Positions 44,204-53,699 of a stretch of DNA of 64,000 nt are shown here, in pieces (positions within the stretch are counted from its first letter, which is position 1; each line of letters opens with the position of its first letter). Source of the DNA: a virus; IMG/VR virus record IMGVR_UViG_3300002835_000013; one strand, written 5' to 3'. The notes below the pieces were generated by a model. It saw nothing but the letters and a program-made list of their open reading frames with translations. It did not search any database and was not told where the DNA came from. Both the position numbers and the translations under genes were made by a program.

Positions 44204-44623
44204 CTATCTCTTCTTGGGATAGCGAGCATAACACATTTCACCGGTGCTTTCATTTCTCAATACAATCCCTCTCCCAGGATTCTTTGCGGCATATTCTCTA
44301 ATCTCGGCAAAACAATCATCTTCATCTAGGTACTTGCGCCAATGTTTACCTCTGCGCTTTTCCATCTTGGCATTATGAAAAACTTTTGATGACACCTCGA
44401 AGACAACCGAACCAGCAAATGTTTCACAATCTTCTACAATAGGATTTGGTGCTTTTCTTCTAAGCATATTTATAACGACAGGTGTAGGAGTTGATTTCTC
44501 ATTACGCTGTCTTCTTCTTTGTGCTTTCTTAGAAACACCAGGTTCGCCCATTGGTCCGATACCTGCACCGGCGATGGCACCAGAACCTACATTGTTTGTC
44601 GGCGCATCTTCTTTGATTGTCAT
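44204..44623 (-). CDS. Conserved hypothetical (probable head-associated) protein
   Basis: EDAPTN..G.G.IAG start; W..Y....IR.Y...NP...I.L.N..TG. Confidence 0.65.
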   Translation of the reverse strand: MTIKEDAPTNNVGSGAIAGAGIGPMGEPGVSKKAQRRRQRNEKSTPTPVVINMLRRKAPNPIVEDCETFAGSVVFEVSSKVFHNAKMEKRRGKHWRKYLDEDDCFAEIREYAAKNPGRGIVLRNESTGEMCYARYPKKR

Positions 44624-45009: not shown

Positions 45010-45261
45010 TTAGTTCTTACTTCGTTTCATTTCCTTCATGATCTTATACTGATAATGCCTATTAGAATGATTATACAATCTTCTATAGAACATTTCGATT
45101 ATTGTCTTGGCAGTTGTTCCCTCAAATAACGATGGTATAAGACCATGAACAATAGAAGCAATACCTGTGCCTATTAGGATGAAGCCAGCATATACGGCCC
45201 ATTTGAGGTGAGCCGTATATGTAGTATTACTTTCTTTTAGATGATCACTTATTTTCTTCAC
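45010..45261 (-). CDS. Small hydrophobic conserved protein
   Basis: HL......Y..H...A......H..IP..F..T; probable GTG start. Confidence 0.6.
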   Translation of the reverse strand: MKKISDHLKESNTTYTAHLKWAVYAGFILIGTGIASIVHGLIPSLFEGTTAKTIIEMFYRRLYNHSNRHYQYKIMKEMKRSKN

Positions 45262-47401
45262 GCTTCTTTGCTTTCCATGCTGTAGCGTAAGCAATAGACT
45301 TTTCTTTGGCAGTTAGACCGTCCTTAGAATAGCCTTTCTTGATGTGCTTTACCATGCGCTCAAACTTTGCGCCTGGAGGTGCCTTTTCTTCTAGTCTATC
45401 AGATACTCTTTCAAGACCTTTCTTTCTTTTCTTGATGGCGTGCTTGAACTTGCCTTCTGTGTCAAGGCCTTTTCTAACAACTTCTTTACTTACATTGCGG
45501 TCTGCTTTAGCCGCACTCTTGTATGCTTTGAGAGTTGCCTGCTTTAGTTCATCAATCTGTGTTTCTTCTTTAGCATGAACTTTTACATTCTTGCCTTTGA
45601 TCTTGTCTTTAGCAAGGTTAGGAGATAGCATTCCTTTACGAAAAGACTCGGGTGTTGCGTAATCCTTGTTTCGATCTTTCTTCTTCGCAAGGTAACTTCT
45701 AAGAGTCTTTTTAGAAACCTCATCAATCTGTTCTTCTTTGACTGGCACACAGTTAGGCACCTGGCGGCCGCCCTTCTTCTTCATGCCAACCATTTCATAA
45801 CCCTTCCAGCAAGGATCTTTATCTTCTTCCATCTTATTGGCAGCATACTTAGCAAACTTGATGCCTTGCTTGTTCTTCTTTTCGCCTTTATGGAATGCCT
45901 GAACATAAGAATACATATCAGGTTCTTTCTGGGCATCCTTCTTCATCTTATCGGACTTTACATAAGCATGATGGGCAGCACGGCTAGCAAGACCAGCGGA
46001 TACTTCATCAATCTTTTCTTCTTTTAGACGCTTATGTGCCATGGTTAGACCTTTTAGTCTTTTTCCAATGGTCTTTTCGTCTTTTGCCTTTTCTGATTCT
46101 GGTCTATCCTTAAACTTAGGTTTACCAAAAACGTCCGTCATATCTTTGCCGGCCCTTTCGTGAAAGCGGTCATCTTCTCTCTTACCAGCAGCATATGTAT
46201 AGGAGGCGTGTGCCCTCTTTCTATATCTGTTTGCTAGTTCCTTAGAGATTTCATCAATCTGGGTTTCTTCCATGTAAGCATTCTTAGGCATAGAAGCATT
46301 TACTTTTGCCTTGCCTTTCATCTTCTTATCAGCAAGAGCAATACCTTTTTCTCTTTTTCTTGCTAATGCCTTAGAAGGAGAAGGATCATCACCCATAGAT
46401 TTGGTGAACTTAGTTTCCCAAGTAGCATCGCCATGGGACTTTTCAGCACCTCTCTTATAGCGAACAAGTTTGCCTAGAGATACTTCGTCAAGTTCAACTT
46501 CTTCTTTTTGATTGGCACGCTTTGTCATTTTATCATACCAAGCTTGGCTTTTCTTTTTACCAGACCTGACAACATCTTTTATCTTATTCTTAGCAACGAT
46601 TTTTTGAATCGCTTTAGTTGAATCATCTTCGTCAATCTGCTTTTTCATCATAACTTTGATGGCAGACTGGGTGCTTGGTGAGTCTCCTTGGCTACAGTCG
46701 CAATCGTCTAGAACAGTATGTGCCTTTTCTTTTGGTGCAGCGGCCTTAGCAACTGCCTGACGGACGGCAGCATCGGTTTCTTCTCCAAAAACATCACCAA
46801 CTTTTTTACTAGGCGAATTACCCAAAAAATGACTTCTTGGATTTTTGGAATTTAATTCCTTCATCTTTTTCATCATTTCTTTTTTACTGCCCTGAGCAAC
46901 AATTTTTTTACTATCGGCATGAACAACTTTATGTGAAGTTGAATGACGAATCGCTTCTTCTAATGTTTCCTCAGCGACCATACTTTCAGCCGCACCAATC
47001 TTGGATTCTAGTTCTTTATCATCCACAATCTTGGCTTGTAGATAATACATGGAACCGACTAGATGATAGTGAAAGAAAAGATAATACTTGGCAGGAACTT
47101 GATTGATCCATTCACCTGTATCGGTGAAGCCCATCTTGTTACCAAACTGATTTACTTCCCATACTTCAATACCATGTCTACCCTCTAGATAGACTTTCTT
47201 TGGTAGATGAATGTGGAAATATGCTAGAGCCTTGCGAACCTTATTGAGTGAAGCATAAGGTGTTACACATGGTCTGGCAGCGATACCAGCTAGAATGCCA
47301 TTTACTTCGTCTCTAACGGCGTCACGCTCAATGTCGATGCCCCCACTAGCGAGGGCACCGATTGTGATTTCTTCGTTTAGGTGTTCACGGAAAGTTTTCA
47401 T
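45245..47401 (-). CDS. Probable internal head polyprotein with repeated (Q/K)IDE processing sites
   Basis: Capsid-targeting-like N-terminus MKTFREHLNE; Lys-rich modules separated by EE.QIDE. Confidence 0.7.
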   Translation of the reverse strand: MKTFREHLNEEITIGALASGGIDIERDAVRDEVNGILAGIAARPCVTPYASLNKVRKALAYFHIHLPKKVYLEGRHGIEVWEVNQFGNKMGFTDTGEWINQVPAKYYLFFHYHLVGSMYYLQAKIVDDKELESKIGAAESMVAEETLEEAIRHSTSHKVVHADSKKIVAQGSKKEMMKKMKELNSKNPRSHFLGNSPSKKVGDVFGEETDAAVRQAVAKAAAPKEKAHTVLDDCDCSQGDSPSTQSAIKVMMKKQIDEDDSTKAIQKIVAKNKIKDVVRSGKKKSQAWYDKMTKRANQKEEVELDEVSLGKLVRYKRGAEKSHGDATWETKFTKSMGDDPSPSKALARKREKGIALADKKMKGKAKVNASMPKNAYMEETQIDEISKELANRYRKRAHASYTYAAGKREDDRFHERAGKDMTDVFGKPKFKDRPESEKAKDEKTIGKRLKGLTMAHKRLKEEKIDEVSAGLASRAAHHAYVKSDKMKKDAQKEPDMYSYVQAFHKGEKKNKQGIKFAKYAANKMEEDKDPCWKGYEMVGMKKKGGRQVPNCVPVKEEQIDEVSKKTLRSYLAKKKDRNKDYATPESFRKGMLSPNLAKDKIKGKNVKVHAKEETQIDELKQATLKAYKSAAKADRNVSKEVVRKGLDTEGKFKHAIKKRKKGLERVSDRLEEKAPPGAKFERMVKHIKKGYSKDGLTAKEKSIAYATAWKAKKREENK

Positions 47402-47411
47402 ATAACTCTCC

Positions 47412-48023
47412 TTATGGTGTTGTTACGGCAGCGTTTGCGGATGTAACTGTGTTTGCTCCAGCTGCGGAAACTAGAACACGGAAGGTGTTTGCGTTTGCGA
47501 CTGCGGCATTTGCGACAAGAGTTGGTGAAGTATTGTTGAAGTAAACACCAGCTGTATTTGGAACAGATATCCAACCAGCACCAGCGTTACGCTGCCATGT
47601 ATAGGATAGTGTAGCGCCTGTTGGTGTTGATGCAGCAGCAACAGTTAGATTGACATTGCCGGCACCATTTGCGCTTGTTGGCTGTGTGGTAATGCGTAGT
47701 GTAAAGTCTGGGAAGTTAGTGTCATCGGAACCATCGGTAGCGATAGAACCTGTAGCAACTAGAACTTCGTATGTTACACGACCAGCACGAAGACCGGTGC
47801 CTTCTTTACGAAGAACCCAACCGGAGTGTGGGATTCTTGGATTAGCACGGACTTCGTTTGTGTCTACAGCAAACTGTCCGATTGCTAGATTTGTTGTGAT
47901 GGCAGACATGGTAACATTGCCATATAGATTGGCACGATTACCAGGTGTGGTTGCCTGATTGACCTGAATTGTTGCTGCAATGTCTGAATTGGCAGCGTTG
48001 TCTTTATTACCCCATAGTGGCAT
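47412..48023 (-). CDS. Virion protein with C-terminal Ig-like domain (head decoration-like)
   Basis: MPLWG start, H.GWV, R...E.LVA, ITTQP...LSY.WQ Ig-like domain. Confidence 0.7.
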   Translation of the reverse strand: MPLWGNKDNAANSDIAATIQVNQATTPGNRANLYGNVTMSAITTNLAIGQFAVDTNEVRANPRIPHSGWVLRKEGTGLRAGRVTYEVLVATGSIATDGSDDTNFPDFTLRITTQPTSANGAGNVNLTVAAASTPTGATLSYTWQRNAGAGWISVPNTAGVYFNNTSPTLVANAAVANANTFRVLVSAAGANTVTSANAAVTTP

Positions 48024-48201
48024 TGTAGTTTCCTTTAGTTAGTTAGAGAGGTGTTCTGCATACCCTGTTTTGCTGGATCCAATTCTACAGGATCAGCGGG
48101 TTTGCCCGTCTCGGTTGTATTTGCTTTTATTTGTTGTCTCTTAGAGAGGACTTTTTTACGATCCTCTCTTACGAGTTTCTTTACATCATACGGATGTTTC
48201 A

Positions 48202-48927
48202 TCATACTATCCTATATTTATTTGCACCAACGGACACGACAGACTCAGCAATTTGACTATTTTGAGAAGTTCTGTTCTTTGCCTCTTTTTCATTATCAAG
48301 ACCAGCACCACCTTGATGCCTTGATCCACTTACAGGTGAATTGGTACGATCAAGAGGATCACTCTCTCTACCATAATTAGGAGTCATAGCATCCGAGCCA
48401 CCTTTTGGTGTAGTGACTGCTGTAGATGCTCCAGGAACGCTACTATCTGTTCTTGGTGTTGCTGGAGCGGGTGCTGCTGACTGCTCTGGACCTTGTGCTT
48501 TTTCAGCCTTTGAAGGATCAAAGGCCTTTAGTCCCTTAGGATCAAGTCTCTTTTGAATAACAGAAGGATCATTTGCACCACCCTTACGTGCTGTCAATCC
48601 TTTAAGATCATTCATATACTGACCTAAGGTAGCATTCGGATTACCTACGTTTTTTCTATATGTATCTAGATCAGACTTAGAAACAACGCCGGGTTTTGTT
48701 GCTGTTGATGCAGCAGGCGGTCTTGTAGTTGTGCCAAGACTAGTAGGTCTTACTGGTGGACGTGGAGCCATAGTTACTGATCCGCTACCACCAGCATTAG
48801 TCGATCCCGCAGGTCTAATGTTTTGTGAGCCTACTGCCTGTGTGCGTCCAACTTGTGCTGCGGCCGGCGCCGCTGGCTTTGGCATACTATTTAATTTAGC
48901 CAACGCTTGTGCGGCCGTAGGTCTCAT
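48202..48927 (-). CDS. Low-complexity Pro/Ala/Ser-rich protein, possibly a frameshift extension of the upstream ORF
   Basis: No clear RBS; frame stays open into the 3' end of 48963-50291. Confidence 0.55.
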   Translation of the reverse strand: MRPTAAQALAKLNSMPKPAAPAAAQVGRTQAVGSQNIRPAGSTNAGGSGSVTMAPRPPVRPTSLGTTTRPPAASTATKPGVVSKSDLDTYRKNVGNPNATLGQYMNDLKGLTARKGGANDPSVIQKRLDPKGLKAFDPSKAEKAQGPEQSAAPAPATPRTDSSVPGASTAVTTPKGGSDAMTPNYGRESDPLDRTNSPVSGSRHQGGAGLDNEKEAKNRTSQNSQIAESVVSVGANKYRIV

Positions 48928-48962
48928 TTGCTCGGATACCGACTTACCCGTTTCCGGTGCGC

Positions 48963-50291
48963 CTAGAAAGACGAATCTTCCTTCATATGCTTGGCACGGA
49001 TTCTCTTTAGAATAGCACCGGCAACTTTCTTGCCACGCTCTTCGGATCCATACTTCTCACCAGCTTTAGCAGCAATCTTAGAGAACATCTTGCCTGGCTT
49101 ACCAATATCTTTACCAGCACGGGCAGCCTTTGCTGAATATGCCGCTTCGTCAAGTTCATAACCTTCTGGTAGATTTGGTTTTGTATGTTTTCCAAGACGA
49201 CTTTTGATATCGGCCTTTGTGTCTTTGGTTGCAGACTTAGTAAGTTTGCCTTTTTTAGTAAAATGGCCTGAATATCCATCCTTATGAAAATCTGTATTGC
49301 TAACATCAGGAAGTTTTGCTTTTCCTGTTGGCTTTTGATTTCTTGCACTCTTGCCAGGAAGATTCTTTTCTTTCCATCTATAAAGACGATTACTTCTATT
49401 CCAGTTGCCATCCATGTCATCATGCGTTTCTGCACGACGATATGCCTGCATTGCTGTCTTAGCAGTTGGCTTCTTTAGTTCATCAATCTGTATTTCTTCT
49501 TTAGCAAGTTTTCTATATTCCTTTGCCTTGTTCTTAGCAGCCTTAAGATCGGACGATGCCTTGGCACGATCCATCAAAGCCGATGCACGACCTCTCTTAG
49601 CTGCGGATTTTTCTGCACTTCTTTCATGCCCAACTGCCTTCCCATAATGACGCTCGAATTTTTCATCATCGTCTTTTTCATCAGCCTTGTCAGCTTCACC
49701 ATGATGAAAATTGGCTCTGGCTTTATGTGTTTGATAGTCGTCAGAATGTTTGCGACGAATATCTGGTAACTTACCCTTACCATAAAGTTCATCGATCTGT
49801 TCTTCTTCCATCTTGCCTGCCATCTTAGCAGCACGGAAGCGAGAACCCCAAACTTCGTCCTTTGGAGACTCTATCTTGCCGTCCTTGTCATAGTCTTTGT
49901 CGGCTTTTTCTTCTTTGGTAACACCCTGCTTCATAAGTTTGCGACCATGTTTTAGCATACTTACGGGAGCATTGTAGTTATTGTTGCGACCTTCGGGATT
50001 ATCGTGACCGAGTTTCATAGCAACGGCATCACGCTTACGACGATTTATATCATCTTTCTTTGGACGATCACGTATTTCATCAATCTGTTCACCTTCCTTC
50101 ATGCACTTATATGCTTCCTCAAGGCGAGCATCATAAGCAGCAAGATCCTCACGGACAACTGCCTTACGAGAATAGACACCGAACTCCTCGTTTACAAGGG
50201 CTTCGGCCTTACGACGAATCTCACCATCCTGCATGGCGGACTGGACTGCTTCTAATAGCGGGTCCTTCTTTGTTAGAAATGGATTACTCAT
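48963..50291 (-). CDS. Probable internal head polyprotein with QIDE/LDE-delimited modules
   Basis: GEQIDE, EEEQIDE, EIQIDE, YELDE junctions between basic modules. Confidence 0.7.
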   Translation of the reverse strand: MSNPFLTKKDPLLEAVQSAMQDGEIRRKAEALVNEEFGVYSRKAVVREDLAAYDARLEEAYKCMKEGEQIDEIRDRPKKDDINRRKRDAVAMKLGHDNPEGRNNNYNAPVSMLKHGRKLMKQGVTKEEKADKDYDKDGKIESPKDEVWGSRFRAAKMAGKMEEEQIDELYGKGKLPDIRRKHSDDYQTHKARANFHHGEADKADEKDDDEKFERHYGKAVGHERSAEKSAAKRGRASALMDRAKASSDLKAAKNKAKEYRKLAKEEIQIDELKKPTAKTAMQAYRRAETHDDMDGNWNRSNRLYRWKEKNLPGKSARNQKPTGKAKLPDVSNTDFHKDGYSGHFTKKGKLTKSATKDTKADIKSRLGKHTKPNLPEGYELDEAAYSAKAARAGKDIGKPGKMFSKIAAKAGEKYGSEERGKKVAGAILKRIRAKHMKEDSSF

Positions 50292-50334: not shown

Positions 50335-52338
50335 TTATTTAGTCTTTTTGTATTTTCTTTTTCCAAACAATGCTGTTTTTTCAAACTCTGCGTTCACATC
50401 AGGTTTTACTTCATCTTGACTCATTGTGTTTGGAGTCATGCCCATTGATCCCATATAAGGGTCAATCAGGCTTTCTTTTCTCACTTTTTCAGCCGTTTCT
50501 TTCATCTTTTCTTCGGCTAGTTTGCCATACTTTGCTTTGAATCTTCTACGAGTTTCTTCTTTCATCATCCAACGGTCAATAGGAGACCATAGCTGATTTG
50601 GTTCACCAGTAATGAAAGGATTATCATCGCTTGTTATATCACCGACAAATGAAGGATTCTTGGCAGAGGTAAATGTCTGACCAAGGCGATCCGCTTTGAT
50701 GGGTAGATTGCCAAAGACTTTAGTTTCATAATAACCCATATCTCTTGTCTTACCTGGCTCCTGACCTGGCGTATCTTTCTTATAACGATCTGTTAGCTTA
50801 GGTGTGCCCCAGTTTCCTGCGCCACCTACTGGATTGCTCTTTGCCTTTGGTGAGAAGTCCGAATACTGTTCTAGCATATTCTCAAAGCGGCGGTCCATAT
50901 CACTGGATAGAAACTCTTCCACTTCTTTGGAAATGGAGTCAACGAACTTATTGTATGTCTCAACAATAGTATTGGCGTCAAGGTCATTCTTTACCTCAAT
51001 AACCTTCTCAAATAGCTGGTCATAACGATTTAGATTGAACTGTGCCTTGCTCCACTTTTCATAACGCTTTTCTTCGGCAATGACACGACCACCAGTGGTT
51101 GACCTTGCTTCGTTACGCTGTCTGGATACATCATTGCTGGTATTCACAAATAGCATAATCGTCTTGTAACCGGCACTCTCAAGGATATTCTTGATTTGTC
51201 TTGTTGCTTCATAGTCTGCCATGGTGCCATTGACTACAAGATTATCACCATTACACTCTTTGATGGAAAACTTGTTATCTGATACTTCTCTAAAGCCATG
51301 TGGTAGAATAGCTTCTTTTAGTATCTTGTCTTTGCCTGAACCAGGAACACCACCAAGAACGATTGCCTTATGTTCTATAACATATGACTTACCAAACATA
51401 TCTGGATTAGCCTTGCCGAACCAACGCATTACTTTACCTGCTTCCGAGTTTGCTTCGTTTTCAATATCTGAACCAGTTGAGCCTTCTTGCTTGATATCTT
51501 TACCGAGTCTACCATCTTCGTTTTGTTTGTGATGGACCAGTTCATGTGCGACAGTTCTAAAGATGTCCATTGGATGACGATTCTTTGTCATAACGATTAG
51601 CTTCTTCTCACCTGGTGAATAACCACCAAATGATGGCTGGTCGCCGTGATCGTCAGCTTCTTTGTATTCTATTTCAGGAGGTTCTACAATGCCAAGTTTG
51701 CCGACAGTAAAGTCAATAAAACTTTTCAGCATACCATCAAACTCTTTGCGAGATAGATCCTCGGTTAGAGTATCTTCTTTGAGATATGATTTGGCTGCGG
51801 TGAAAATCTTCTTGGCTAATGCTCTATCGGCGGTAGGTGCGGTCTTCATAAACTCGCCAAACTTGCCACCACGGATATATTCACGCATCTGTGTTCCAGA
51901 TACGCCTGCCTTACGACCGCCAGAGTTGATTACATCAAAGCGTCTAAAGGCATAGTTTTTGTTCTTATCAAACTTTGGATTGTCTCTAGGCAGAACATAT
52001 TTGCCAATGCTATTCTTGAACTCTGCTACACGGTCACCACCTGTAATCATTGTCACATCTTCGACGCCTTCATCGGAGAGTTTTTTACAAATAGCAAATG
52101 CGGTTGTAGCATTTGGATCGTCAACGATATTGATGCCAGGGAATAGCTGGCGAAGAAACATTACTTTTTGCTGATATGGAAGAGGATTCTTTTTAGGATC
52201 CCAGGACTTGGAGGTATAAACTCTAAACTCGGCGCCAATCTTTCTAGCATAGTTAGCACCGAAGTGGATCATTTCAGCATGGCCTTTTGTAGGTACCTGG
52301 AAACGTCCGAAAATGAATACAACTTTTTTATTGAACAT
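50335..52338 (-). CDS. Multidomain protein: cytidylyltransferase-like NTase, zincin peptidase, P-loop kinase
   Basis: FGRFQ.PTKGH...SGT.MR; AHELVH; GGVPGSGKD. Confidence 0.8.
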   Translation of the reverse strand: MFNKKVVFIFGRFQVPTKGHAEMIHFGANYARKIGAEFRVYTSKSWDPKKNPLPYQQKVMFLRQLFPGINIVDDPNATTAFAICKKLSDEGVEDVTMITGGDRVAEFKNSIGKYVLPRDNPKFDKNKNYAFRRFDVINSGGRKAGVSGTQMREYIRGGKFGEFMKTAPTADRALAKKIFTAAKSYLKEDTLTEDLSRKEFDGMLKSFIDFTVGKLGIVEPPEIEYKEADDHGDQPSFGGYSPGEKKLIVMTKNRHPMDIFRTVAHELVHHKQNEDGRLGKDIKQEGSTGSDIENEANSEAGKVMRWFGKANPDMFGKSYVIEHKAIVLGGVPGSGKDKILKEAILPHGFREVSDNKFSIKECNGDNLVVNGTMADYEATRQIKNILESAGYKTIMLFVNTSNDVSRQRNEARSTTGGRVIAEEKRYEKWSKAQFNLNRYDQLFEKVIEVKNDLDANTIVETYNKFVDSISKEVEEFLSSDMDRRFENMLEQYSDFSPKAKSNPVGGAGNWGTPKLTDRYKKDTPGQEPGKTRDMGYYETKVFGNLPIKADRLGQTFTSAKNPSFVGDITSDDNPFITGEPNQLWSPIDRWMMKEETRRRFKAKYGKLAEEKMKETAEKVRKESLIDPYMGSMGMTPNTMSQDEVKPDVNAEFEKTALFGKRKYKKTK

Positions 52339-52457
52339 ACTCGCTCCCTCTGCGGGTTTATTTGCTTATTTATATAACTTTTTCTTTCTTGCCTCTTTTA
52401 CTATCTTACGAATAGTTTTGACGATAGGCGTAGGCTTCTTTTCGGGTTCCTTTTTCA

Positions 52458-53699
52458 TTACTTGCCCCAGTTCTTTACAGCCAGGAAGTTGGCTCTACTA
52501 AACTCCATACGATCCACTAGTTTGACAGCATCACCACCAGTTGACCAAGCAGCCACATATCCTTCTGGAGTTGTTACTTTATAGCCACCATCGGCTGTAT
52601 GTAAGAATGTGCCTAGATCATTCACCATGTTGAACTTGGCAATCAGTAGCATCTTGGCATCAATCAATAGATTTTGAAGCTGGAATATCTTCTTTAGATC
52701 GGAAGCATTCTGGCGATACCATCTAAGGATCATATCTCTTTCAGCCTTGCGCTTTGCTTTAGTCGCTGGCATCTTGGCGTCGTCTATTTGCTTTTGATAC
52801 TTGTCGCCAACCCATTTGATTAGCTGTGCCGTATGGCCCGCACCCATATGTTCACCAGCACGAATGCGCTGATTATAGAAGGACATAATCTGGATTCTTT
52901 GTGTTTCGTTTGTAGCAATGAAGTTCATTAGTGAGGCAGGTATTGTTCTGAATAGTGAACCAGCTTGTGATAGAATGCCTGTTAGTCTAGCATTCTCTGC
53001 CTTTGTAAGAGTAGCACGACCAGTAACATCAACAAACTTATTTGATCTATACCACACATTTCGTGATGGATTGAAGTTATTTACATTGATATCAAAATGT
53101 GTCTGGAGAGTCTGCATCGTCTTGCCATGATATGTGGTATGAAATACGATACCAATCTTGGCCGCTCTGACTTGCTGTGCCAGTTTAGAATCGGCAGGAA
53201 CAGCATATGTGATTGTATTAGGACGGAATGTGATATACTTCTTGCCGTCGATTGTCTCGTCCTTTAGTTCGCTTTTGGAGAACATAAAGTCGCCATGAAC
53301 GATACCTTTGATGCCTAGTTCTGGTAGATACTTTAGAGCGGCAGACAGTTTATCAGCCAGACCGCCTTGGTGATTGGCTCTAACATCGGCTTCTGTATAG
53401 TTTAGTTTAGCATTCTTGGCGAAGATAGACTTTGAGCCAACAAAGAACTTTCCGTTTTCAGGATTGATACCGGCATAGATAGCAGGAGCGCCGTCGAACT
53501 TAGTTCTAAGAATAAGGCCGCCTCTTGCTTCTGATAGAGTCTGACCATCATCGGCAAACATATCTCTAAGGGAGATTAGGAACTGAATAGCGTTGCGAGT
53601 GCCAGCAACACCACCTTCCAGAACGGCGTCCTCAATATGTGTTAGATGGCGATCCTTTTCGGCCGCTGCTTCTGTAATATACTGTGAAAGTCTAATCAC
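52458..53699 (-). CDS. Conserved T4-like protein with ATP-dependent ligase-like nucleotidyltransferase motifs
   Basis: HL.H.ED, KFDG, GD.MF, FHT, EGYV, VKLVDR.EFS; N-terminus MIRLSQYITE. Confidence 0.65.
   Translation of the reverse strand: MIRLSQYITEAAAEKDRHLTHIEDAVLEGGVAGTRNAIQFLISLRDMFADDGQTLSEARGGLILRTKFDGAPAIYAGINPENGKFFVGSKSIFAKNAKLNYTEADVRANHQGGLADKLSAALKYLPELGIKGIVHGDFMFSKSELKDETIDGKKYITFRPNTITYAVPADSKLAQQVRAAKIGIVFHTTYHGKTMQTLQTHFDINVNNFNPSRNVWYRSNKFVDVTGRATLTKAENARLTGILSQAGSLFRTIPASLMNFIATNETQRIQIMSFYNQRIRAGEHMGAGHTAQLIKWVGDKYQKQIDDAKMPATKAKRKAERDMILRWYRQNASDLKKIFQLQNLLIDAKMLLIAKFNMVNDLGTFLHTADGGYKVTTPEGYVAAWSTGGDAVKLVDRMEFSRANFLAVKNWGK

Follow-up and report, generated by a model that had tools for sequence, protein, structure and literature searches.

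Two minus-strand genes in a 64,000-nt stretch of viral DNA, IMG/VR record IMGVR_UViG_3300002835_000013 (the window, meaning the whole stretch analyzed), encode modular proteins of 718 aa (p718, 45245 to 47401) and 442 aa (p442, 48963 to 50291). We consider it probable that p718, and by its design also p442, is a head-internal (core) polyprotein of a T4-like phage. A first-pass annotation had described the same two open reading frames (ORFs), both of which were borne out, as polyproteins built from swappable modules. Support for this reading comes from a tag-like motif at the N terminus of p718, a residue rule at the module junctions, cassette exchange at junction repeats, a protease gene in relatives, and the detection, in published work on one cultured cyanophage, of virion proteins that are syntenic or share modules. 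The window gene map comprises 103 ORFs, 101 of them (18,152 residues) besides p718 and p442. Judged by these genes, the source phage is a T4-like myovirus: homologues of the T4 tail tube, gp26, gp51, gp32, gp59, and primase are encoded, as are ThyX, a class II ribonucleotide reductase, RtcB, and PhoH. No close cultured phage was found at the DNA level, the sole match being 60 bases of thyX.

p718 (all window coordinates below are on the minus strand) begins with the decapeptide MKTFREHLNE (residues 1 to 10; 47372 to 47401), which resembles the T4 capsid-targeting sequence (CTS) and ends in L-N-E. It is followed by a conserved acidic α/β N-domain that anchors the family (residues 11 to 149; 46955 to 47371), and then by about ten modules. 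These start with module X1 (AIRHSTSHK...; residues 150 to 209; 46775 to 46954), which is absent from the related loci L001, L002, and L003, and the CDC module (TDAAVRQ...DCDCSQGDSPST...KKQIDE; residues 210 to 258; 46628 to 46774). Next come cassette C (DDSTKAIQ...EVELDE; residues 259 to 306; 46484 to 46627), module D (VSLGKLVRY...MEETQIDE; residues 307 to 384; 46250 to 46483), modules E (ISKELANRY...) and F (VSAGLASRAAHH...) (residues 385 to 526; 45824 to 46249), and the DKDPCWKGY...VPNCVP module (residues 527 to 561; 45719 to 45823). Modules H (VSKKTLRSY...) and I (LKQATLKAY...DRLEE) (residues 562 to 672; 45386 to 45718) precede the terminal module, KAPPGAKFERMVKH... (residues 673 to 718; 45248 to 45385). 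The helix-like starts of modules D, E, H, and I and the DPCWKGY...VPNCVP module were thus found as first described. The latter module recurs in cyanophage proteins, in gp160 from S-CREM2 virions, and in proteins of the head cluster of the near-complete relative G001. p442 has an N-terminal domain of its own and four modules, which follow three EQIDE motifs and one ELDE motif and come from a pool common with p718.

Cutting at the junctions is predicted to release a 15.6-kDa acidic N-domain and peptides of 4 to 12 kDa, which are mostly lysine-rich, with isoelectric points of 9.3 to 10.2. p718 as a whole contains 122 Lys and 36 Arg and carries a net charge of +51. Lysines of the T4 internal proteins (IPs) are described as touching DNA phosphates (PMC3012670).

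In a search of 1.84 billion cluster representatives, 3,555 matched at E ≤ 1e-3; the number fell to 531 at 1e-10 and to 75 at 1e-30. The part common to the family is the first ~145 residues, and the 150 listed representatives span 116 to 798 residues. Functional names were absent among the 24 closest relatives in a second database, where any name was "hypothetical protein." Neither p718, p442, and 16 single modules nor the neighboring proteins p203 and p241 matched a Pfam family beyond chance level (E ≤ 1), the PHROG matches of p718 were limited to families without known function, and a PDB sequence search returned no match for p718 and one chance-level match for p442. The NCBI label "DUF6321" on a cyanophage match was not reproduced for the window module. 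An AlphaFold2 model of the N-domain is of α/β type (mean predicted local distance difference test score of 80.6) and has no fold match in the PDB at E ≤ 0.001; the best match, pantothenate synthetase, had an E value of 0.03 and a template modeling score of 0.25 and was treated as chance. A BFVD search with the model returned uncharacterized phage proteins only, and the ESM Atlas gave unnamed viral clusters only, with scores of ≤0.80.

The junction motifs listed in the first-pass annotation were all recovered in p718 and map to residues 254 to 258 (KQIDE), 301 to 306 (EVELDE), 379 to 384 and 613 to 618 (ETQIDE), 462 to 466 (EKIDE), 556 to 561 (EEQIDE), and 670 to 672 (LEE). In p442, the three EQIDE motifs end at residues 72, 168, and 271, and ELDE spans residues 379 to 382. 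The two proteins (1,160 residues together) contain the tripeptide [IL]DE 10 times, and the other 101 ORFs combined also contain it 10 times, which makes a ~16-fold enrichment. Among the 150 listed representatives, IDE is present 120 times (15.1 expected) and LDE 162 times (20.9 expected), and the family consensus is ..E-E-E-Q-[IL]-D-E followed by [IVL]-S-K... Junctions often hold two tandem motifs, as in ..Y-M-E-E-T-Q-I-D-E and ..L-K-E-E-K-I-D-E.

To avoid circularity, conserved module starts were used as anchors, and the three preceding residues (P3 to P1) were read. Before KAPPGAKFER, P1 is Glu in 30 of 30 instances and P3 is Leu or Ile in 29, with nine different residues at P2; the tripeptides are ISE, LEE, IDE, LDE, LNE, IAE, LYE, LAE, LQE, IQE, and IKE, plus one VRE, and two of the 30 instances are cultured cyanophage proteins. 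KLTKxMSAG is preceded by [LIV]xE in all eight cases, the junction rule holds before VSLGKL (13 of 13) and VSAGLA (9 of 9), and GRMPASV always follows Glu (10 of 10), with V, L, M, or F at P3. The background of [LI]xE in family proteins is 1.28%. Among the reported sites of the T4 prohead protease gp21 are LIE-9, ITE-6, and LTE-619 (PMC9026906, among other sources), and the T4 IP propeptides end in IAE and ITE, the same form as the junctions. In T4, processing is blocked when Asp replaces the Glu at P1. These data support the view that the junctions follow the gp21-type [L/I]-x-E rule, and the early reading of them as gp21-like cut sites agrees with a variable P2 and with their position directly before unrelated conserved modules. 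Because P3 is hydrophobic, P1 invariably Glu, P2 free, and the distance to unrelated modules fixed, the junctions appear protease-site-like, beyond what a DNA repeat or an acidic linker would give.

At the DNA level, the junctions had been proposed to share a word, CAGATTGATGA. This word occurs exactly five times in the window, always on the minus strand and always within the p718 and p442 genes; with one mismatch allowed, there are 13 matches versus 2.68 expected (0 of 100 shuffles reach 13), 8 of them in these two genes. The confinement to the two genes therefore stands, but the exact word is missing from 5 of the 10 [IL]DE junctions. Five of the seven QIDE sites use CAG-ATT-GAT, for which 0.15 per site is predicted from the codon usage of 16 large window ORFs. 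Since CAGATTGATGA marks half of the [IL]DE junctions and five of the seven QIDE sites share codons, the DNA-level bias is real but modest.

Module order and content are strongly variable, not invariant, across relatives. The 150 listed representatives were split at junctions and the pieces were clustered; a first clustering (single linkage, without composition correction) put 433 of 540 segments in one cluster and was discarded, and stricter settings were used. The 540 segments then fell into 250 clusters, 25 with at least three members and 203 singletons, and the 150 proteins display 137 distinct architectures. Common modules occupy many ordinal positions next to many different neighbors, the N-terminal domains of p718 and p442 type always come first, and two modules essentially always come last. 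p442-type proteins draw on the same module pool, and some modules are 64 to 78% identical to cyanophage ORFs. Gene order is conserved across 66 IMG/VR loci: DUF6267, p667-type, p442-type, (p241), (p203), p718-type, DUF7207, p139, (p130), and primase. The flanking genes have constant lengths (DUF7207, about 128 aa; primase, about 336 aa), and lengths range from 179 to 667 aa for the p718 type, from 212 to 1003 aa for the p442 type, and from 654 to 1943 aa for the p667 type, with some extremes reflecting contig ends. p667 homologues reach 1943 aa via added pool modules behind [LIVM]-x-E (e.g., in locus L049).

Exchange of modules can be followed in the closest relatives. Protein P0157 equals p718 at residues 1 to 255 and 307 to 718 bar three substitutions, and an unrelated 64-residue cassette replaces cassette C, a swap of a single cassette. 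Locus L001, a 98%-identical contig whose shared DNA blocks are 97 to 100% identical to the window, carries the same alternative cassette. It lacks module X1 through an indel (46785 to 46964) flanked by a GA(A/G)GAAAC repeat and modules E and F through a 432-nt deletion (45833 to 46264) bounded by the 9-nt repeat ATGGAAGAA, the deletion adjoining 227 nt of module D at 100% identity. L002 has the p241 equivalent as part of its p442-type protein, attached behind a ..NLEE junction. On the evidence of the P0157 swap and of the L001 indels, whose breakpoints lie in junction repeats, modules have recently been inserted, lost, and exchanged, in frame, at microhomologies that encode the junctions. The notion of reshuffling at one junction repeat thus held for the breakpoints, which fall in short junction-coding repeats, but not for the word itself: the mapped indels use ATGGAAGAA and GA(A/G)GAAAC, and CAGATTGATGA is only one of several words.

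The N terminus of p718 was compared with those of the T4 IPs, of which IPII and IPIII start with MKTYQEFIAE and IPI with MKTFKEFTSTTTPVSTITE (MKTFKEFTS...ITE). The first 10 residues of IPIII are enough for packaging, and within the CTS, residues 4 and 7 are the main determinants of targeting, while those of processing are residues 8 and 10 (PMC9026906, section 2.6). The suggested likeness of MKTFREHLNE to a capsid-targeting sequence was confirmed at these functional positions, which are F4, H7, L8, and E10 in p718. A census of 110 representatives, picked by an independent marker (an invariant QFG motif at its expected spacing in the N-domain), found an aromatic residue at position 4, an aromatic residue or His at 7, an aliphatic residue at 8, and Glu at 10 in 94; several of the 16 exceptions are shifted start-codon calls. 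A CTS-like N terminus is present in 2 of the 103 window ORFs, p718 and the DUF6267 protein, whose homologues carry the pattern in all 28 distinct N termini. It was looked for in homologues of the primase, DUF7207, and p203 and was absent.

A gp21-type protease (Peptidase_S77) is encoded by all five near-complete IMG/VR relatives with this locus (156- to 175-kb class; N-domain 42 to 74% identical to that of p718), which places the protease in the lineage through these relatives rather than through a gene of the window phage itself. The head genes of the closest of the five, G001, are ordered as portal, a 498-aa ORF, a 430-aa ORF, two small ORFs, protease (L073:6164-6811), scaffold, and major capsid protein. 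Both larger ORFs carry modules of the pool, as in ..VDE/ACWDNYKQEGMKKKGNKMVPNCVP.. and ..QIDE/ISAEL.. (a slash marks the junction), and the 430-aa ORF starts with MKTIKQIREE. The two ORFs (L073:2029-4827) lie in the interval between portal and prohead protease that holds gp67 and gp68 in T4, and their module types are CW..Y..VPNCVP, DLRKWF.., and DWQ..RRWNC. The propeptide region of the G001 major capsid protein (gp23) contains ..ALNE/AAPT, at what we take to be the position where T4 gp23 is cut.

Cultured cyanophages provide a link to virions. Mass spectrometry of CsCl-purified S-CREM2 virions identified the cytidylyltransferase ORF154 and the hypothetical ORFs 155, 156, and 160, as listed in Table 3 of PMC10665884, where encapsidation is suggested by the authors. 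The S-CREM2 locus is syntenic with the window block, in the order cytidylyltransferase, several ORFs, DUF7207, module protein, and primase. S-CREM2 gp154 aligns to p667 (E 1e-17) and starts with MKNFSSFLTE, and gp160 contains ..ENLEE/KKNCWPGYEKKG.. (NLEE/KKNCWPGY), 46% identical to p718 residues 526 to 564. In phage Syn19, the cytidyltransferase (Syn19_174) starts with MKKFSAFLNE, and its downstream neighbor Syn19_175 has a ..KEEEQLDE/ junction. S-RSM4 ORF 060 consists of MKTFKQFREE and a single KAPEGAKYER module behind ..LIKE/, that is, the terminal module of p718 alone behind a tag-like start. ORF 219 of Synechococcus phage S-CREM1 (L074:2047-4398; 783 aa) holds KAPPGSKYER and DPCWKGY modules between very acidic stretches and lies beside a NadR-like gene; its modules identify it as a cultured-phage multi-module protein of the same pool.

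These observations suggest the following mechanism. The decapeptide MKTFREHLNE would act like the T4 CTS and direct the precursor to the prohead's scaffolding core. The gp21-type prohead protease would then cut after the Glu of [L/I]-x-E, removing the tag and cleaving each acidic junction (..EEQ-I-D-E/). This would release the N-domain (15 kDa, conserved) together with some ten lysine-rich peptides of 4 to 12 kDa. The peptides would stay with the packaged DNA as counter-ions and might also be injected as effectors. Because all junctions are encoded by similar short words (GAAGAA.., ATGGAAGAA, and CAGATTGATGA), we propose that short-homology recombination could insert, delete, or swap modules in frame, which would make the locus a fast-changing cassette array.

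Several points weigh against this assignment. For the p718 and p442 families, we infer targeting, cleavage, packaging, retention or injection, and peptide function from sequence. The N-domain family of p718 is absent from 50,697 cultured phage records (tblastn, E ≤ 1e-5), so the virion evidence comes from proteins that share only modules or synteny with it. The p718 and p442 genes sit amid replication genes, as T4 ip genes likewise do, and the head genes and protease of the window phage itself fall outside the window. The T4-like tag is absent from p442; a second tag type at its N terminus was considered and is unsupported, with the possible propeptide ..DPL[LVI]E/A keeping Glu in 20 of 42 distinct N termini. 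Similarly, the window p667 does not have the tag present in its cyanophage counterparts. The CW..Y module is preceded by [MILV]xE in just 17 of 26 cases, and the conserved [L/I]-x-E could be part of a structural linker. Finally, the T4 late-promoter consensus TATAAATA shows no enrichment in the window (7 seen versus 4.08 expected; 14 of 100 shuffles reach 7), so late-promoter motifs provide a positional hint only.

If cleavage does occur, it might serve disposal only, as for T4 gp22, gp67, and gp68. p718 and p442 would then be head-core or scaffold-accessory proteins whose modules supply bulk or charge and whose diversity stems from weak constraint. Cyanophage genomes reportedly lack gp67 and gp68 (PMC2984593), so analogues may exist, and module-bearing ORFs occupy the gp67/gp68 position in G001; the 203 singletons among 250 segment clusters and the failure of any module to match a known functional family also fit. 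We nevertheless regard mere disposal as unlikely, given that the products are strongly basic and lysine-rich, unlike the acidic scaffold, and would be expected to stay on DNA, and that identities of 64 to 78% between modules and ORFs of distant cyanophages argue for specific functions. It also seems unlikely that the proteins are packaged essentially uncut, with the tag alone or nothing removed, as modular proteins of the polyvalent type in which the acidic [L/I]-x-E stretches would link small DNA-binding domains flexibly and act as in-frame recombination joints. Phage-delivered polyvalent proteins with 2 to 15 domains are an established class, as described in PMC5512222, and the neighbor p667 has their typical enzyme-rich architecture. 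Moreover, indel breakpoints in junction-coding repeats, and identical codons at five of seven QIDE sites, indicate that selection acts on the junction, at least in part, as a joint. However, a hydrophobic P3, an invariant Glu at P1, a free P2, and a fixed distance to unrelated modules are what a protease site predicts, not a linker or a DNA repeat, and the amino acid rule holds while the junction DNA words differ.

Lastly, p718 and p442 may not be virion proteins at all but cytoplasmic, lysine-rich nucleic-acid-binding proteins that, for example, compact or mask DNA, either intact or processed by a different protease, for example the HExxH domain of p667. On its strand, the locus is flanked by replication and nucleotide-metabolism genes, the HELVHH stretch of p667 has a weak metalloprotease match (phrog_87, E 4.6e-4), and processing by an own metallopeptidase has been proposed for polyvalent proteins (PMC5512222). 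This explanation is improbable in our view, since T4 ip genes have an equally "early" setting, the T4-type tag is limited to p718 and the DUF6267 protein among the window ORFs, syntenic and module-sharing proteins are present in purified S-CREM2 virions, and the junction rule extends to cyanophage proteins next to a cytidyltransferase that has no HExxH domain.

Returning to head-internal polyproteins, the peptides may have an anti-defense role: high turnover and many singleton modules are compatible with it, and also with counter-ions that are only weakly constrained, and none of the modules looks like a known inhibitor. It is tempting to go further, although we hold the following extension to be doubtful. 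A large uncultured aquatic clade of T4-like phages, with simpler forms in cultured cyanophages, may load its capsid with a combinatorial library of injected peptides made by the prohead protease, the protease-site DNA doubling as an in-frame recombination joint and the modules being counter-defense or host-takeover effectors. The genes from the ligase-like DUF6267 protein through the polyvalent cytidyltransferase/kinase protein, p442, p241, and p203 to p718 would then form a dedicated locus of ejected proteins.

In closer relatives, the conserved neighbor p203 (MPLWGNKDNAANSD...; 47412 to 48023) lies immediately upstream of the p718-type gene. Weak similarity (E 3e-4) links its Ig-like C-terminal half to S-RSM4 ORF 058, a cyanophage protein annotated "Structural protein," and p203 is possibly a capsid decoration protein. 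A 56-aa basic ORF (48035 to 48205) overlaps the stop codon (ATGATGA) of p241 (48202 to 48927), which is Pro/Ala-rich and basic and ends in ..VGANKYRIV. ATAAATA (48215 to 48221) lies 16 nt upstream of the 56-aa ORF, and upstream of p203 and p718, and resembles the cyanophage late promoter, given as NATAAATA in PMC2984593. p667 (50335 to 52338) combines a cytidyltransferase, the HELVHH zincin-like stretch, a zeta-toxin-like P-loop kinase, and a tail; TATAAATA (52367 to 52374) lies ~30 nt upstream of its start. The DUF6267 protein (52458 to 53699), with the N terminus MIRLSQYITEA, is the sole other window ORF with the CTS-like pattern. It has a K-F-D-G stretch, which presumably recalls motif I of ligase/capping nucleotidyltransferases, and could be a packaged enzyme. 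Homologues of p139 (44204 to 44623) start with M-x-[IL]-x-E-[DE] (MTIKED, MINED, MKLKED), a very short [IL]-x-E N terminus, and vary from 107 to 668 aa across relatives, and p139 may be a further processed, variable protein of the block.

In open-access papers and preprints, we found no published account of this family nor, for aquatic T4-like phages, of cassette arrays delimited by protease sites; the known precedents come from work on T4, giant phages, phage P1, and polyvalent proteins. The word "internal" is absent from a 2010 review of T4 genes in cyanophages (PMC2984593). Ejected internal proteins are the first phage products to face host defenses, and detailed knowledge of them is limited to T4 and a few other phages. 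If our reading is correct, a role could be given to thousands of "hypothetical" ORFs of aquatic viromes (the 3,555 cluster representatives at E ≤ 1e-3), with module boundaries predictable from the tag and then from [L/I]-x-E before each module. A single motif would couple proteolytic release with cassette shuffling, and the modules would constitute a catalogue of small candidate anti-defense or DNA-packing peptides. The simpler versions in the cultured cyanophages S-CREM2, Syn19, and S-RSM4 make the idea directly testable.

Among known systems, the DarA, DarB, and DdrB proteins of phage P1 are packaged in the head, processed, and injected, as proposed here, and a CTS-like concept has reportedly been applied to the Dar proteins. 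They differ in belonging to an unrelated phage type and in being large enzyme proteins, not arrays of small modules. Inner-body and ejection proteins of phiKZ, 201phi2-1, and SPN3US are likewise head-internal and are cut after Glu by a gp21-related protease, often at redundant sites, which the tandem junction motifs recall (PMC9026906, PMC5694885). The giant-phage motif has a small P3 (A/S-x-E), however, cleavage is described mostly for propeptides, and the cited accounts of these phages describe no shuffled arrays of small basic cassettes. gp21 cleaves T4 gp22, gp67, and gp68 at numerous positions, which yields short fragments, and the module ORFs of G001 share the portal-protease interval. 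gp22 itself has no homology to p718 (PHROG 237 matches only the true gp22 of G001), and the scaffold is acidic, whereas the p718 products are basic. Polyvalent proteins of phages and conjugative elements, as described by Iyer et al. (2017; PMC5512222), also join unrelated modules in one phage polypeptide, for which co-delivery with DNA and proteolytic release have been proposed. p667, which has modules of the pool in common with p718, fits this class. Unlike polyvalent proteins, p718 and p442 have no enzymatic, anti-restriction, or named polyvalent domain and no peptidase of their own; their modules of 35 to 110 residues are mostly basic, and their processing is ascribed to the prohead protease, which would act at a defined motif that is repeated.

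p718 resembles T4 IPI, IPII, and IPIII in phage type, in the decapeptide determinants at positions 4, 7, 8, and 10, in the [L/I]-x-E end, and in small basic products. The T4 IPs are single small proteins cut once, whereas p718 has a conserved 139-residue domain and up to about ten modules, each behind its own site. No T4-type match to mature IPs was obtained with p718 by tblastn against the 50,697 phage records; the T4 IPs themselves are described as having only the CTS in common (PMC3012670), so homology to mature IPs is not strictly defining. Like the genes of the window, the T4 ip genes are diverse, have nothing but the tag in common, and occupy a plastic region surrounded by non-structural genes.

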